Source of the DNA: Escherichia phage vB_EcoM_VR7 | Length of the DNA stretch: 64,000 nt | Sequence record: NC_014792.1 | Reading direction: 5' to 3' (one strand) | Shown here: piece by piece, positions 28,041 to 64,000 of the stretch | Position numbering within the stretch: the first letter of the stretch is position 1 | How the letters are laid out: every line of letters starts with the position of its first letter | Notes under the pieces: model-generated | The model's database searches: none | What the model was told of the DNA's origin: nothing | Seen by the model: the letters and a program-made list of their open reading frames with translations, nothing else | Position numbers and translations under genes: made by a program

Positions 28041-28054
28041 CTCTACTACTTGAG

Positions 28055-28062
28055 TATAAATA
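28055..28062 (+). promoter_or_regulatory. Late promoter (TATAAATA) driving the HNH endonuclease gene
   Basis: Exact TATAAATA 27 nt before the ATG, with GAGGA RBS. Confidence 0.55.
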
Positions 28063-28088
28063 TAGTATATCACCAAAGAGGACATACA

Positions 28089-29928
<1,840 letters not shown>

Positions 29929-32029: not shown

Positions 32030-33166
32030 TTATTCAGGCAGGATTACATCCGCTTGGTAGTCCGCTGGGATGTAAAGTTTATGATTTTTAAGGAAAACAT
32101 TATTGATTTGAGCGATGGTTTGCTCTGTTTCCTGGGGACGTTGATACGTGTTCATTAATACGGAGAACAAACCCGGATATGGTTTACACAGTTCTTGACC
32201 TTTAATCGCAAACTCGCGTCGGTCTTTTCCTGCCAACTGTTTCTGGGCATCAAGCAACAGTCCCAGGGTATTGGACAGATAATCCAGATGGGTCAAAGTA
32301 AAGGCATTAACTTTTTCACGAGCATAATCATCGCCAGTAAACATGGCAATAACATCATCTGCACCGCCTGCGACAACAACTTCAAAAAGACGCTGGTTAT
32401 TGTTAACAGAATCCTTTGTATGGTGTAAAGCACAATACCATTCTGTCTTAACTTTAAATTTGCGACCATCGACCAGCTCATAGACAAAGCCTTCAATCTC
32501 TTTCATATCACGGACGTTTTCAATTGTAGCCGGGTCATATGCTTCAACCAGGAATGGGCGAAGCGCGGCATCTTTAAACAAATCCCGATAAGGGATATAT
32601 TCACCAGTTTCATTATGGCGAACGTTCAGTAAAATCAGGTCACGTTCCTGGTAAGGCAAAACAATGCGGTTGGTTGGCGCAACATATTCCATATTGCATG
32701 TATAACCAGCTTCAGTAATTTCAGTTACACGCTCACGGAAAGCTATACGGTGTTCTTGTTTGAATACCTGCAGGGCTTCTGCTGCCTGGGAGCTTTTGAT
32801 TGACCCTTTGGATTTAAAAGCAATATTGGTCTGGTCCATATAAGTGGAGACAAGAGAGCCATCAGCCTTGGTCATGACCAGCGCAACTTCATCCATATTG
32901 ATATCCATGGTCAACGGATTTTCGCCCAAGTTAAAGAACTTTTCCATAGGACGAGCCGCAATACGAACTGGACCATCTGCATCCATTTCAAACATAATGC
33001 CACGGCACTCTAATGCATCATCAAGGAGCCAATCACTATAGGAAGCATAGTTATAGCTAAAGATGCGGAACTTAGTTTCAAATGGAGAAACGAAATCAGT
33101 ATAGAAAAACTTACCTTTTTCAGATTCAGCGCACAGCTTCATTAAGTTGTCATATAATTCAATCAT
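32030..33166 (-). CDS. rnlA: RNA ligase 1
   Basis: 378 aa; strong match to T4 Rnl1 (FRIFSYNYASYSDWLL.DALECRGIMFEMD...TKADGSLVSTY). Confidence 0.95.
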   Translation of the reverse strand: MIELYDNLMKLCAESEKGKFFYTDFVSPFETKFRIFSYNYASYSDWLLDDALECRGIMFEMDADGPVRIAARPMEKFFNLGENPLTMDINMDEVALVMTKADGSLVSTYMDQTNIAFKSKGSIKSSQAAEALQVFKQEHRIAFRERVTEITEAGYTCNMEYVAPTNRIVLPYQERDLILLNVRHNETGEYIPYRDLFKDAALRPFLVEAYDPATIENVRDMKEIEGFVYELVDGRKFKVKTEWYCALHHTKDSVNNNQRLFEVVVAGGADDVIAMFTGDDYAREKVNAFTLTHLDYLSNTLGLLLDAQKQLAGKDRREFAIKGQELCKPYPGLFSVLMNTYQRPQETEQTIAQINNVFLKNHKLYIPADYQADVILPE

Positions 33167-33579
33167 TTCTTCACCTTATGTTGGTAGTTCCACGGGGGAT
33201 TAAAAAGCTTTATGAACATCGGCTCTTCCAGAGACATAGTTTCGACTGACATCGTACCAAGTTCATTGGTCATTGATAGATTGAAACATTGTCGTGCATA
33301 GAATACCACCTTTTGACCTGCATGTAAAGCTTCATGTATCATCCGGGATTTGTTTGAATCACTCGTTTGTTCTATACGATTGATTGCAGTCCGGTAATAA
33401 TTGATTCGCTTCTTCAGGTTGTTCGTCTTACCAATATACACTAGTTCATCGTCAACTGAAATAGCGTAGATAACATTTTTCTTGTTCGCGAGTGTAAGGG
33501 TAGGGATTTTACCATCGACTAACTCTAACTCCGCATATTTTATAAAACTGTATTCGTCAGCGATTTGTTTCATAGACAA
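33163..33579 (-). CDS. denA: endonuclease II (GIY-YIG nuclease)
   Basis: 138 aa; GIY-YIG-like motif VIYAISVDDELVYIGKTNNLKKRINYY; T4 denA position between rnlA and nrdB. Confidence 0.7.
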   Translation of the reverse strand: MSMKQIADEYSFIKYAELELVDGKIPTLTLANKKNVIYAISVDDELVYIGKTNNLKKRINYYRTAINRIEQTSDSNKSRMIHEALHAGQKVVFYARQCFNLSMTNELGTMSVETMSLEEPMFIKLFNPPWNYQHKVKK

Positions 33580-40433: not shown

Positions 40434-40510
40434 TTTTATTTCCTCAGTTGTTATCAGCAGTTGATGGAATCATTATGCCTTAGCTCAAGGAGCTTGTACA
40501 CTACTTTTTG

Positions 40511-40540
40511 AAAATAAAAAAGGGACCCGAAGGTCCCCTT
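40511..40540 (-). terminator. Rho-independent terminator after gene 32
   Basis: GGGACCTTCGGGTCCC hairpin followed by TTTTTTATTTT on the minus strand. Confidence 0.7.
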
Positions 40541-40543
40541 ATA

Positions 40544-41455
40544 TTAAAGGCCAGCCAGAAGGTCGTCAAGACCATCATCAGAAGGCTCTGGAGTGCTTGG
40601 AGCAGTCGCAGTGCGTTCAGACTTAGCAGGTTTGTTGGAAGTGAAGTCTTCCATATCTTTATCAAAATCGTCCAGGTCAGCGCCCAGTTTATCAGCTTGT
40701 GCAGCAGCTTTAGAAGCAGCACCGCCGAGAGCAGCCGTACCCATTACTTTAGAGAATTTCTTCTGATTCTCTTCAAGGGATTTAAACACCAGCAATTCAT
40801 TCAGGTCAGACATTTCGTCCCAAAGTTTTTTCTGGAACGCTTCATCATTGATGCCAGCGATTTCAGACTGGTTCATGAATTTGGAATCATCGTAGTTTTT
40901 ATAACCGGAAACCATTTTAGATTTCAGTACGAAGTTCGCACCTTCAAAAGGACAAGTTACATCAATAGCTGTTTCGCCCATGTCAACATCGACTTCAACC
41001 ATCTGGTTGATTTTGTCCATGATTTTCTTACCGAAGCGGTATTTGAATACTTGACCTTCGTTAGACGGAACAGCAGGGTCTTTAATGACCAGGATGTTAG
41101 CCCAGTAAGAAGTATTACGCTTCAGTTTACGATATTCGGATTCGTTTGTATTGTACAGGTCATTCTTATTCATGTACGCACACACAGGACAGTTTTCATA
41201 GTCGCCGTGAGTAGAAGTACAGTTTTCAATATACCATTGACCAGCATTTTTAAAGCCGTGGTTAACCAACTTAATGAACGGAGATGGATTTTCTTCATTC
41301 TTAGAAGGCAGGAAACGAATAACCGCAGAGCCGACGCCATCAGTATCTTTCAGTTTCCATTCTTTTTTATCGTCAGAAGAGAAACCGGCACCACCTTTCA
41401 GAGCGTTCAGGGAAGCGGCGAGGTCAGCTGGGTTACGACGTTTAAACATAGACAT
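40544..41455 (-). CDS. 32: gp32 single-stranded DNA-binding protein
   Basis: 303 aa; strong match to T4 gp32 (AVIRFLPSK...HGFK..G.WYIE.C.STHGDY; acidic C-terminal tail). Confidence 0.95.
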
Positions 41456-41525
41456 AGTGATTTCCTTAGATTATTTGATTTTAACAGTTGTTTTGATTAC
41501 GTATTAATTATACTACTTTTTATTT
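41456..41525 (-). promoter_or_regulatory. gene 32 leader: middle-promoter-like element plus A/U-rich 5' UTR (probable gp32 translational operator)
   Basis: Minus strand reads GCGCTTTA, 12 nt, TATAAT, then an A/U-rich leader of about 45 nt before the ATG; operator function is inferred from T4 biology. Confidence 0.4.
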
Positions 41526-41636
41526 AAAGCGCATTTATCACGGTGACGTTTTAAATGATTTATAGATGTTTCATATCCACATAAATCACAAATGGCCCTT
41601 GGTAATTTTTTACCTTTAAACCCTTTGGGATGAATA

Positions 41637-42185
41637 TTATCTGGGTTTGAGTAACGGCGCTTTAGCAGAATCACTAAGAGTTTTTATCACTTCAATACCT
41701 CTGATATTATTTATTTTATCATCTTTTTCATAAAAGCGATTTAAGCCTTCAGAAATTGATTTCTTATGCTCCGTGCTTTTTGGAACATCCTTTTGTGCTT
41801 CCGAAATACATTGATTTGTGTATATGGAATTTTTCATTCCATATCTTGGTGCGCGTTCACCGGCACCACCAAATGCACCATGAGCTGTTGCTTTATTAAA
41901 GAATAGCGGTGATTTTGGTATATTATAATGAGAGTGGTACCACTCTTCCTCGTCCAAAACATCTTCACAGACATCGAGTATTTTAACTGTCGGCTTTTCG
42001 AGTTGAATAGCTTCAAGAAAATCAGCTTGCTCACATGAGGACCAATATTCTCTTCTTGAAGTATATTTCAAATCAATTATAACACCATTTTCAAAAGCGC
42101 AATTATGCTTTGACCCAATGTAAAAATAAGGAGGTGTTTTATTTTTCAGACGAGTTTCAAATGTAAACCAATATACAACATTCAA
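41637..42185 (-). CDS. segG: GIY-YIG homing endonuclease (SegG-like)
   Basis: 182 aa; N-terminal VVYWFTFETRL...PYFYIGSK GIY-YIG-like motif; sits between genes 32 and 59 like T4 segG. Confidence 0.55.
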   Translation of the reverse strand: MNVVYWFTFETRLKNKTPPYFYIGSKHNCAFENGVIIDLKYTSRREYWSSCEQADFLEAIQLEKPTVKILDVCEDVLDEEEWYHSHYNIPKSPLFFNKATAHGAFGGAGERAPRYGMKNSIYTNQCISEAQKDVPKSTEHKKSISEGLNRFYEKDDKINNIRGIEVIKTLSDSAKAPLLKPR

Positions 42186-42835
42186 AACTTACACCCTTTA
42201 ACAGTCTCGATGAACAATTTACGAGCTTCAAGAGCATCTATATTTAAGATTTTCTTATAAGCATTTAGTTTGGTTGAATACTTATCCCAAACCAAATCGT
42301 TAGTCTGTTCATCATGTTTATTTATTATATGCAAAAATGAGTCAAGCAAACAAAACGTTTCAAATGAGATAACATTCGATTGGAGAAGTTTGAAAATATA
42401 ACTTGTGTTCACTTTAGTATTATACTCAAAAATCTCTTGAAGCGATTTGACTTCACTTTTCTTACTAAAGTAATAGATGTTCTTTATATCATCTTCGTAT
42501 ACTTGTTTAATTCTTTTAAGTCTGCCGATGTATTCCCTATAAAATATCAGAGCATCGGCATCACTTATATCACCTATCCATGCATCCTGGTTCGCGACCA
42601 GGTTTGACATGAATATTAACGTTAATTCTTTGAGAGTGTACTTATCGCTAAGCTTTTCGAAAAAATACTTGTCACGACGTTTTTGATAAGCACTATCGGA
42701 GATTCGCATGGTCCAGTTATATTTGATAATATCATAACGACCCGAAAAATGCTGTTTGATGGATAAGTACAGTTGATATACTGATTTACCATTTATGTAT
42801 CGGTTGTTATTTGGAGGCATGCGAATCGTAATCAT
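42182..42835 (-). CDS. 59: gp59 helicase loader
   Basis: 217 aa; near-identical to T4 gp59 (YNWTMRISDSAYQKRRDKYFFEKLS...ANQDAWIGDISDADALIFYREYIGRLK). Confidence 0.9.
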   Translation of the reverse strand: MITIRMPPNNNRYINGKSVYQLYLSIKQHFSGRYDIIKYNWTMRISDSAYQKRRDKYFFEKLSDKYTLKELTLIFMSNLVANQDAWIGDISDADALIFYREYIGRLKRIKQVYEDDIKNIYYFSKKSEVKSLQEIFEYNTKVNTSYIFKLLQSNVISFETFCLLDSFLHIINKHDEQTNDLVWDKYSTKLNAYKKILNIDALEARKLFIETVKGCKF

Positions 42836-43125
42836 AACAAAAAGTCCAGCGTATTAGTTTTCTGTGTACGAGACATACTTGGACGAAGCAGGTTATCATC
42901 ATATGCTTCGTTCATAATCTTATCAATGATTCCTGCCGGGATATATCGAGCAAAATTACCCTCAGGAACACCACGTTCTTCTAACCAGGCAGTCGTAGCT
43001 TCCAGATAAGACATTTCAGTTGACTCAACCATGGCTTCAATATCAAGCCCGTTTTGCTGTTTACTAATCGCCCCGGAAGGCGATTCAGTTTTCTGTGTAT
43101 CAAAATTAACTAAAGAGGACATCAT
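42832..43125 (-). CDS. 33: gp33 late transcription co-activator
   Basis: C-terminal two-thirds matches T4 gp33 (MSYLEATTAWLEE...NLLRPS...KTNTLDFLL); start is uncertain (43122/43125 or 43152) and overlaps the dsbA 3' end. Confidence 0.75.
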   Translation of the reverse strand: MMSSLVNFDTQKTESPSGAISKQQNGLDIEAMVESTEMSYLEATTAWLEERGVPEGNFARYIPAGIIDKIMNEAYDDNLLRPSMSRTQKTNTLDFLL

Positions 43126-62354: not shown

Positions 62355-62564
62355 TTATTCACCAAAATAAGAAATACGGATTGCCAGTACATGAGCGTAA
62401 GCGCTCATTGCATCTAACTGGGCATTCAAAAGACCTTGCTGACGATTATCGAGAGTTTCAAAAACACCACCTTTAATAAACTCTTCAAGAGCATTGATTT
62501 TCAGGACCAGTTGGTCATATTCTTCAACTACACGTGCTTGGAAACCTAACATTTCTTTAGACAT
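62355..62564 (-). CDS. hypothetical protein
   Basis: 69 aa ORF. Confidence 0.4.
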   Translation of the reverse strand: MSKEMLGFQARVVEEYDQLVLKINALEEFIKGGVFETLDNRQQGLLNAQLDAMSAYAHVLAIRISYFGE

Positions 62565-63048
62565 TGTGTTCTTCCATATATTTTAATCGAGCTTCATTTG
62601 CTTCTTCTGGAGTTGCAAAAGCTCCGACTTGAGTTTGTTTTTTATTTCGCATAATAGTGGCTCGCCATGGTTTATTCAAAGCTCGTTTATCAAACGAGAC
62701 TCCTTTAAATCCAGACTTGTTGTTATTATACGGGCGCTTATTTAAAGCATTCTCACCTGGACTAACCCATCTGCAGTTATCGGGAGAGTACCCTTTATCG
62801 TTATCTGTTCGGTCAAGTTGATGTTTGTCAGTGGGTCGTGACCCCATATCTGTATAAAATCTTTCAAAATCATGCAGCCATTCATCGCAAACAGTGATAC
62901 CCCGCCCGCCATATCGAGAATAACTAATATGTGTTGGATTGCAACACCGAGCTTTCATGCCAATCCATACAATGTATTCAGGCGTGTGACCTAGCCCGTG
63001 GACAATACCACGAGCCGAGCCATCTTTAGCAATTGTTTGTTTAATCAT
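62557..63048 (-). CDS. HNH endonuclease with C-terminal AP2-type DNA-binding domain (homing endonuclease-like)
   Basis: 163 aa; HNH core (DRTDNDKGYSPDNCRWVSPGEN) then AP2-like segment (SGFKGVSFDKRALNKPWRATIMRNKKQTQVGAFATPEEA). Confidence 0.7.
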   Translation of the reverse strand: MIKQTIAKDGSARGIVHGLGHTPEYIVWIGMKARCCNPTHISYSRYGGRGITVCDEWLHDFERFYTDMGSRPTDKHQLDRTDNDKGYSPDNCRWVSPGENALNKRPYNNNKSGFKGVSFDKRALNKPWRATIMRNKKQTQVGAFATPEEANEARLKYMEEHNV

Positions 63049-64000
63049 TGAAACGTTCGGTCACATCTTCAAGAACCAGGTAACCACAAACCCTCATCTT
63101 ACTATCGGAATAATCCACCGGGATACTTACAACATCACGTGGGTGAACTTTACAGGATACGATACGGCCATCACCATGACCAAAACCGCTTCCGATATAA
63201 CCTTTAGAGCAAACATGCAGTCCAGTTGAACAGGTCTGTTCGTCATTGTCATTCACACGAGAGCGCGGCATTTTAACATATTGACCAGGGCTGTTGTCAA
63301 ATGTATTTGAGTGACAATCTTTGTAGGTTGAACGAACCATTTTCCAGGCGATGAAATGACCGTCTTCAGTGATTTCGATATCGTTCGCAACCAGGAAGTC
63401 AAACAAACGCTGTACTGCTTTCTCGCTTGGGTTCTCAAGGAGATTCTCAAGGAACGGCAGATAGAATTCAAAATCTTCGCCATTTTGCATTGAATTGATG
63501 ATACGAGTAACCAGACCGGAGCGCAGTTCAATTCCCTGATAGAACAGACTACCGCCTTCAATACGCACATCGCCTTTCACATATTTTTGCACCGCAGCTT
63601 TGATAGAGATAAACTCGATAGCATCATCAAAACGAGATTCTTTGAGTGCCTGGATAATAGCATCAAAGTGTTTATGGTCTTTTGTTGCGTTCCAGACTGT
63701 ACGACCTTCGGTGATGGAAACGAATTTGCTTGATGCGTTCCATACGATTTCCGGTCGGCTTCCACCAATTGTATCAGTAACTGGGACCACTTGAGGTTCA
63801 TTAGGAACCGTTACTGTAATATTTCCGGTAATAACTACTTCAGAAGGCTTAAATTCTTTATCATTTTTCAAAACGCGACGAATGGTATCAACTGAAATAT
63901 TGTACCAGTCAGCTAGTTCCTGCTGTGTATAGTTACCTGAAGCATACAGAGAAACAATTTGTTTTTGTTCGTATTCAGAGACGCATTTAATATTGTACAT
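63041..64000 (-). CDS. rIIB: rIIB lysis inhibition protein
   Basis: 319 aa; strong match to T4 rIIB (MYNIKC...YTQQELADW...DTIRRVLKN...ENLLENPS.KAV.RLFDFLVANDIEITEDG); start codon is the last three bases of the window, so the promoter is outside. Confidence 0.9.
   Translation of the reverse strand: MYNIKCVSEYEQKQIVSLYASGNYTQQELADWYNISVDTIRRVLKNDKEFKPSEVVITGNITVTVPNEPQVVPVTDTIGGSRPEIVWNASSKFVSITEGRTVWNATKDHKHFDAIIQALKESRFDDAIEFISIKAAVQKYVKGDVRIEGGSLFYQGIELRSGLVTRIINSMQNGEDFEFYLPFLENLLENPSEKAVQRLFDFLVANDIEITEDGHFIAWKMVRSTYKDCHSNTFDNSPGQYVKMPRSRVNDNDEQTCSTGLHVCSKGYIGSGFGHGDGRIVSCKVHPRDVVSIPVDYSDSKMRVCGYLVLEDVTERFND

Follow-up and report, generated by a model that had tools for sequence, protein, structure and literature searches.

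A frameshifted SegG-family GIY-YIG gene, probably a homing cassette, between genes 59 and 32 of Escherichia phage vB_EcoM_VR7

The reading frame between genes 59 and 32 of Escherichia phage vB_EcoM_VR7 is probably a free-standing GIY-YIG homing cassette of the SegG family. In this T4-like Gaprivervirus genome the cassette, which carries a frameshift, sits at the 3′ terminus of gene 59, immediately before gene 32. The window analysed was the whole stretch of 64 000 nucleotides from the VR7 record (NC_014792.1), and the phage-collection records nearest to it were Gaprivervirus genomes. The ORF at 41637..42185 on the minus strand encodes 182 amino acids, with a TTG start at 42183-42185 that overlaps the stop codon of gp59 (T-TTG-A) and a TAA stop at 41637-41639. 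The product matched YP_004063938.1, ‘gp32.1 putative homing endonuclease’ of Escherichia phage vB_EcoM_VR7, exactly; gp32.1 is an already annotated element of an ordinary kind. Both neighbours bore out the location assigned in the initial annotation, the upstream flank being the helicase loader gp59 (ORF 42182..42835, minus strand; Pfam T4_Gp59_N/C, E values of 1.9e-48 and 4e-39) and the downstream flank the single-stranded DNA-binding protein gp32 (ORF 40544..41455, minus strand; Pfam gp32, E value of 7.7e-51), each with strong PHROG matches in addition.

The VR7 ORF matched PHROG 7504 ‘homing endonuclease’ with an E value of 1.3e-48, tblastn detected relatives in 236 phage records and dN/dS over the whole seg gene was 0.11 against the closest intact relative, TH15; 41637-42185 is, on these three counts, not a chance reading frame. 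The gene is real, but the boundary at 41637 that had been taken as its end is a product of the frameshift, and the ancestral gene reaches 41513. Another ORF of 339 amino acids (40508-41527, plus strand) runs antisense to gene 32 with a low-complexity translation, and is almost certainly spurious because of that translation and its overlap with the strongly supported gene 32. The features of the locus are as follows.

41637..42185, minus strand: seg ORF as found, 175 native residues and 7 out-of-frame residues (APLLKPR)
41513..42185, minus strand: full extent of the ancestral seg gene, 223 codons after removal of one A
41661..41663, minus strand: frameshift site, from DNA alignment with TH15, Ursula and PKO111
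41871..42185, minus strand: GIY-YIG catalytic domain, residues 1-105, common to T4 SegG
41706..41849, minus strand: NUMOD3-like helical repeats at about residues 113-160, which open the DNA-binding half
41513..41674, minus strand: displaced C-terminal frame, listed as a 53-amino-acid ORF, with the basic linker and zinc knuckle
Codons 41531-41590, minus strand: putative zinc knuckle C199-x2-C202-x11-H214-x3-C218, in the reconstructed frame
41507..41533, minus strand: GCTTTA-N12-TATAAT kept from the empty site, probable middle-type promoter of gene 32 by analogy with T4
41432..41449, minus strand: gene 32 start, ATG TTT AAA CGT CGT AAC, predicted target or immunity site
41435-41437, minus strand: gp32 codon 5, CGT in VR7 and not the usual AAA

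Assignment of the N-terminal domain to the GIY-YIG alpha/beta fold held up. Across 60 diverse homologues Y5, P19, Y22, G24, Y47, S50, E80 and N97 were invariant, in keeping with the GIY and YIG tyrosines, the metal-binding glutamate and the conserved asparagine. The GIY-YIG-like motif initially noticed at the N-terminus is present, the two tyrosine motifs being V4-Y5-W6 and Y22-I23-G24, with Y5, Y22 and G24 unvarying in the same homologues. A second motif of the form Y-x-(G/S)-S (Y47...S50) is equally invariant, which makes the motif assignment ambiguous, and was weakly paired by hhalign with YVGS of I-TevI. The metal-binding glutamate and the asparagine of the fold were found in E80, on the helix at 76-86, and N97; we infer from order and spacing, rather than from residue-level superposition, that these are the equivalents of E75 and N90 of I-TevI. 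The canonical catalytic arginine of GIY-YIG enzymes lies on the first helix (R27 in I-TevI). No conserved arginine follows either motif, and the R of T4 SegG corresponds to D55 in VR7; R12 or K26, both almost invariant, may fill the arginine role. In the predicted model additional beta-hairpins (strands 29-32 and 35-38) lie between the two motifs.

The match to PHROG 7504 was confined to residues 1-115 of the VR7 protein and positions 1-114 of 210 in the profile. A profile search for the GIY-YIG domain (PF01541 or related), which had been proposed as the check on the fold, did not yield a match: Pfam and NCBIfam gave no GIY-YIG hit for the 182-amino-acid ORF or for the 223-amino-acid reconstruction, even at E≤10. 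T4 SegG was likewise unmatched by the Pfam GIY-YIG profile and by NCBIfam, so the test is insensitive for the SegG subfamily and annotation by these profiles alone will under-call such nucleases. Profiles of the N-domain built from 18 and 60 sequences gave nothing or chance matches only among PDB sequences, and alignment of an N-domain profile by hhalign with the catalytic domain of I-TevI returned an unusable probability of 0.6%. An exhaustive profile search recovered 229 relatives of the N-domain. Among 113 distant relatives scanned with Pfam, 78 contained NUMOD3, five matched SegE_GIY-YIG (PF19835) weakly and a few had NUMOD1 or I-TevI DNA-binding domains, as would be expected around the catalytic domain of a homing endonuclease. 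There were no paralogues of the N-domain elsewhere in the window.

The remainder of the protein is of a different kind from that of T4 SegG. Alignment with T4 SegG, SP18 SegG and database homologues separated the C-terminal halves into two unrelated classes, a T4/SP18 type that ends in a ...GW(I/N)P... motif and a VR7 type composed of NUMOD3-like helices, a basic linker and a zinc knuckle; tblastn matches to genes of the T4/SP18 type covered 58-69% of the VR7 query. The initial match to T4 segG consequently stands for the N-terminal ~105 residues, which are homologous, and fails for the C-terminal half, which is of the other type and unalignable. The VR7 gene is not a full-length orthologue of T4 SegG, as the two do not share a DNA-binding half, and a full-length orthologue was ruled out on the failure of the C-terminal halves to align. 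NUMOD3 (PF07460) did not match the VR7 protein and gave a sub-threshold E value of 0.0036 for the PKO111 orthologue; the predicted model places helices at 121-131 and 138-151 with low confidence. The four putative zinc ligands, C199, C202, H214 and C218, were invariant in 12 orthologues, and the region was modelled with pLDDT values of 82-86. Foldseek found weak resemblance to the beta-beta-alpha fingers of Sgf11 and the RAD18 UBZ (E values of 0.6-1.3). In VR7 the zinc-knuckle codons are out of frame.

The distribution of the cassette pointed to mobility. Comparison with relatives lacking the gene, as had been suggested initially, revealed a precise presence/absence polymorphism among 34 phage records of ≥90% identity: one (TH15) had the VR7-type allele, eight had the SP18-type allele (SP18, DK-13, UPEC07, RZ, TH22 and TH55 account for the eight records) and the remainder were empty, records being scored as seg-less when the query was covered over 76-77% in two pieces. 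Near-identical phages thus have the same site in three states, empty (VR25, VR26, VR20 and others), SP18/T4-type or VR7-type, as expected of a mobile cassette. Further orthologues were obtained by exact-protein look-ups, and all those examined (Ursula, PKO111, PSE-D1, KP179 and eight metagenomic contigs) were located between gp59 and gp32. A scan of IMG/VR with the alignment of the C-terminal half found no locus.

The junctions of the cassette were exact between seg-bearing and seg-less relatives. At the upstream junction insertion replaces the last nine codons of gp59 (...NCQITLQSL to ...GCKF), and these rewritten residues therefore tolerate replacement; gp59 is 217 amino acids ending KGCKF (42182-42196) in VR7 and 222 amino acids ending KNCQITLQSL in the seg-less VR25. 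At the other junction the cassette ends inside a GCTT(T/C)A-N12-TATAAT stretch that is retained from the empty site and conserved between seg-bearing and seg-less relatives. In gp32 and gp59 VR7 is nearer to seg-less VR25, with identities of typically 98-100% per 100 bp, than to the carrier TH15 (93-100%), and therefore the cassette sits in a VR25-like background. A mosaic allele of 229 amino acids was seen at locus L041 (ENA ERZ13616301 contig, P0002), in a background of the Gaprivervirus type; its first ~113 residues differ from VR7 only at H102R and the remainder is 58% identical. The gp32 gene of this contig is recoded differently, as CGT CGC AAA, and the spacer between seg and gp32 is 145 nt with two promoter-like copies of GCTTCA...TATAAT.

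The middle and late promoters of T4 gene 32 are embedded in segG, and the gp32 operator of T4 overlaps the segG 3′ end (PMC2988022, PMC535899). By analogy, GCTTTA-N12-TATAAT at 41507..41533 is probably the middle-type promoter of VR7 gene 32, and this putative promoter overlaps the 3′ end of the full-length seg gene. A scan of 41350-42900 for sigma-70 promoters and terminators gave results not above the shuffled expectation, and the T4 late-promoter motif TATAAATA was absent from the seg gene and its immediate surroundings.

Presence of the VR7-type allele was associated with recoding of the start of gene 32. Of the 36 loci that lack a VR7-type allele, 32 have a gp32 that begins MF-K-R-K, with the consensus AA[AG] CG[TC] AAA at codons 3-5. 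These codons deviate from the consensus in 11 of 12 VR7-type carriers and in 4 of the 36 other loci (Fisher's exact p = 6.5e-7, uncorrected for phylogeny). Three recodings were identified: AAA CGT CGT in VR7 (41435-41443), TH15 and Ursula; CGT CG[CT] AAA in five metagenomic carriers; and AA[AG] AGA AAA in PKO111 and two metagenomic carriers. PSE-D1 and KP179, which are additional carriers of the PKO111 lineage outside the count of 12, also have the AGA recoding. All three recodings keep basic residues. The basic motif formed by the residues of codons 3-5 at the gp32 N-terminus is needed for gp32 cooperativity. In each of four matched backgrounds no multi-nucleotide cluster other than the recoding occurred within the first 300 nt of gene 32. 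The association has exceptions: the most divergent carrier (L047) keeps the consensus codons, an empty site (L021) nevertheless has CGT CGT in gp32, and CGT CG[TC] occurs with an SP18-type allele in the Salmonella phage KM16 (L049) and with a T4-type allele at L012. Between T4 (L006) and the seg-less T4-like loci L028 and L029, a substitution cluster and a 3-nt indel were observed at gene 32 nt 52-63.

These sequence comparisons suggest, as the leading interpretation and with a likelihood around even or slightly above, that the VR7-type enzyme targets the opening codons of gene 32 and that recoding makes carriers immune. The recoded codons may alternatively be markers co-converted from the donor, or reflect translational or functional constraints of gp32 itself, rather than confer immunity, an explanation that we regard as plausible and somewhat the wrong side of even. 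They lie 17-158 nt from the seg stop, within typical co-conversion tracts, and recoded alleles are found without a VR7-type seg gene (L021, L012 and KM16). Co-conversion accounts less readily for three different recodings in four matched genetic backgrounds, each of them a codon swap of 2-3 nt that preserves a basic residue. Moreover, at 41457-41460 and 41478, which separate the seg stop from the recoded codon, VR7 matches VR25 and not TH15, which argues against simple hitchhiking of the recoded codon. The recoded starts of KM16, L012 and L021 may record a past zinc-knuckle allele that was then replaced or lost.

A broader reading of target choice and immunity, held tentatively and at a little below an even chance, is that the locus preserves the record of an arms race. 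The zinc-knuckle branch would target the opening codons of gene 32, for the essential, basic Lys-Arg-Lys motif of gp32, and lineages would have escaped in at least three independent ways with the charge unchanged, by AAA to CGT at codon 3, by AAA to CGT at codon 5 and by CGT to AGA at codon 4. The same record would include resistant empty sites (L021), allele replacement (KM16, L012 and SP18) and a fresh broken copy (VR7).

The frameshift in VR7 was located by DNA alignment. VR7 reads GCT AAA GCG where TH15 reads GCT AAG CG, which is one extra A, and Ursula and PKO111 also read GCT AAG at this site. The VR7 seg frame is broken after codon 175, and three-frame translation revealed a second frame that runs past the VR7 stop with a conserved-looking tail. 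Removal of the extra A yielded a 223-amino-acid protein that aligned end to end with the 219-223-amino-acid proteins of TH15, Ursula and PKO111. The 90%-identity cluster has ten members, nine of them 223 amino acids long, the VR7 protein alone being 182; the intact 223-amino-acid frame is present in TH15 and eight metagenomic copies. Over the 48 codons after the shift, the restored frame differed from TH15 by five synonymous changes and one non-synonymous change (dN/dS about 0.05). As this purifying pattern persists downstream, the frameshift is of very recent origin unless it is a sequencing error. Of the 34 columns that are invariant in the C-terminal alignment, 13 fall in the lost segment, and the four putative zinc ligands are all among them; a genuine frameshift, with loss of these ligands and of the conserved linker, would probably leave the enzyme without function. 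On its sequence the VR7 copy as recorded is most likely a freshly inactivated gene, and overlap of the seg 3′ end with the promoter region of gene 32 may be the reason why the DNA is retained.

It is less probable, at a little under one chance in three, that the extra A arose in sequencing or assembly and that VR7 encodes an intact 223-amino-acid enzyme in a cassette that is an active homing endonuclease gene. The uniform length of the nine other cluster members and the purifying pattern in the restored frame are both in keeping with such an error, as is a single-base change in a homopolymer, here a three-base run. A run of just 2-3 bases is, however, atypical of homopolymer errors, the deposited record annotates the 182-amino-acid product and degenerate copies of homing endonuclease genes are common, an example being the T4-type copy at L032. 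At this locus (IMG/VR 3300045988_128797) the longest frame of the T4-type segG is 175 amino acids and is devoid of a normal, intact N-terminus, and the gene seems to be a further case of degeneration in this slot.

That the truncated 182-amino-acid protein retains nuclease activity, its specificity being altered or relaxed, was judged improbable. The truncation leaves the catalytic domain untouched, along with about 70 residues of the DNA-binding half, and the zinc finger of I-TevI is a distance determinant not required for binding, which counts in favour of an active truncated form; the segment lost from VR7 nevertheless comprises 13 invariant positions with all four zinc ligands and the basic linker, and no other database sequence ends at the VR7 truncation point. 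Programmed +1 ribosomal frameshifting at GCU-AAA-G, which would restore low-level full-length protein and so regulate a toxic nuclease, is scarcely credible and was rejected: although tRNA-Lys could, from the sequence, slip from AAA onto AAG by +1 re-pairing and seg genes are known for low-level expression (PMC2988022), the shifted arrangement is unique to VR7, every relative having an in-frame version of the site, the A-site codon is GCG, which is neither slow nor a stop, and no stimulatory element was seen.

The initial annotation had counted three endonuclease-like genes in the window. Candidates besides the seg gene were an HNH-like/NUMOD3 ORF, a denA-type GIY-YIG ORF and a weak AP2-like ORF. 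The ORF at 28050-28814 (plus strand, 254 amino acids) lies on the opposite strand to its neighbours and has an N-terminal HNH-like stretch and a NUMOD3 match (E value of 1.9e-4), with the late-promoter motif TATAAATA at 28055-28062. A Mob-type homing endonuclease is its probable identity, and the ORF is likely to be among the other two genes intended. The ORF at 33163-33579 (minus strand, 138 amino acids) adjoins nrdB- and nrdA-sized ORFs, matches Pfam GIY-YIG (E value of 9.3e-6) and looks like denA. The denA product, endonuclease II, is a GIY-YIG nuclease and not a homing endonuclease. A weak AP2-domain match (E value of 1.2e-3) was found in the ORF at 62557-63048 (minus strand, 163 amino acids), which is followed by an ORF at 63041-64000 (minus strand) with an N-terminal helix-turn-helix that runs off the end of the window; these two may form another endonuclease-type insert.

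The observations on the seg locus can be accommodated in a mechanism modelled on T4 SegG, for which nuclease activity and marker exclusion have been demonstrated experimentally (PMC2988022, PMC2330249, PMC535899). The intact 223-amino-acid enzyme would consist of an N-terminal GIY-YIG nuclease tethered to a DNA-binding half of NUMOD3-like helices, linker and C2HC zinc knuckle. In a mixed infection it would cut the homologous region of a co-infecting seg-less phage, and recombinational repair would then copy the cassette, together with markers close to it, into the cleaved genome, the net effect being intron-less homing, or localised marker exclusion. Enzymes of this type would recognise the first codons of gene 32, carriers being protected by recoding of the Lys-Arg-Lys codons. 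In VR7 the extra A at 41661-41663 would remove the conserved linker and the zinc knuckle and so inactivate the enzyme.

Taken alone, VR7 gp32.1 changes little, being of a well-studied kind and already annotated as a putative homing endonuclease. Its interest lies in the modular evolution of GIY-YIG enzymes, with one catalytic domain and two unrelated DNA-binding halves in one slot, and in the homing endonuclease life cycle, of which empty, occupied, replaced and degenerating sites are found in one genus. Should the target-site prediction be true, the locus would offer a directly testable pair of enzyme and target in an essential gene.

Swapping of DNA-binding domains and competition of endonucleases for one slot are well documented in phages. 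T4 SegG (gene 32.1) resembles the VR7 element in occupying the same slot between genes 59 and 32 in the same orientation, in its homologous N-domain (57% identity between VR7 and a T4 SegG-type N-domain), in the overlap of its 3′ end with the gene 32 control region and in its absence from some close relatives. It differs in its ...GWIP... tail, in place of which the VR7 type has NUMOD3-like helices and a C2HC zinc knuckle, and the VR7 copy, unlike that of T4, is frameshifted. The cleavage site of T4 SegG was reportedly described as ‘distant’ by Liu and colleagues in 2003, whereas the predicted target of the VR7 type is the first codons of gene 32. The segG gene of Shigella phage SP18, of the same genus, has the identical insertion point, and its first ~85 nt are 99% identical to VR7 and its first 38 residues identical; after about 100 nt identity falls to 65-70%, and the sequences then become unalignable, SP18 having a C-terminus of the T4/SP18 type. 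A shared 5′ part followed by divergence implies allele replacement by recombination inside the gene.

I-TevI is encoded by the T4 td intron, whereas the VR7 gene is free-standing; the two proteins are 13% identical in sequence, and the hairpins modelled between the motifs are extra to VR7. The zinc finger of I-TevI is of the Cys4 kind and lies in the linker, in contrast to the C2HC, C-terminal zinc knuckle of the VR7 type. I-BmoI and other NUMOD3-containing GIY-YIG endonucleases share with the VR7 type the order of a GIY-YIG domain followed by NUMOD3-type helices, although in the VR7 type NUMOD3 is below the Pfam threshold. Different endonuclease genes in the same intergenic slot, as at the seg locus, are also known from SegH and Hef, which according to the citation of Sandegren et al. 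(2005) in PMC2988022 replace mobC and mobE in related T-even phages. Unlike those genes, the competing seg alleles have their catalytic domain in common, and the difference between them is confined to the DNA-binding half.
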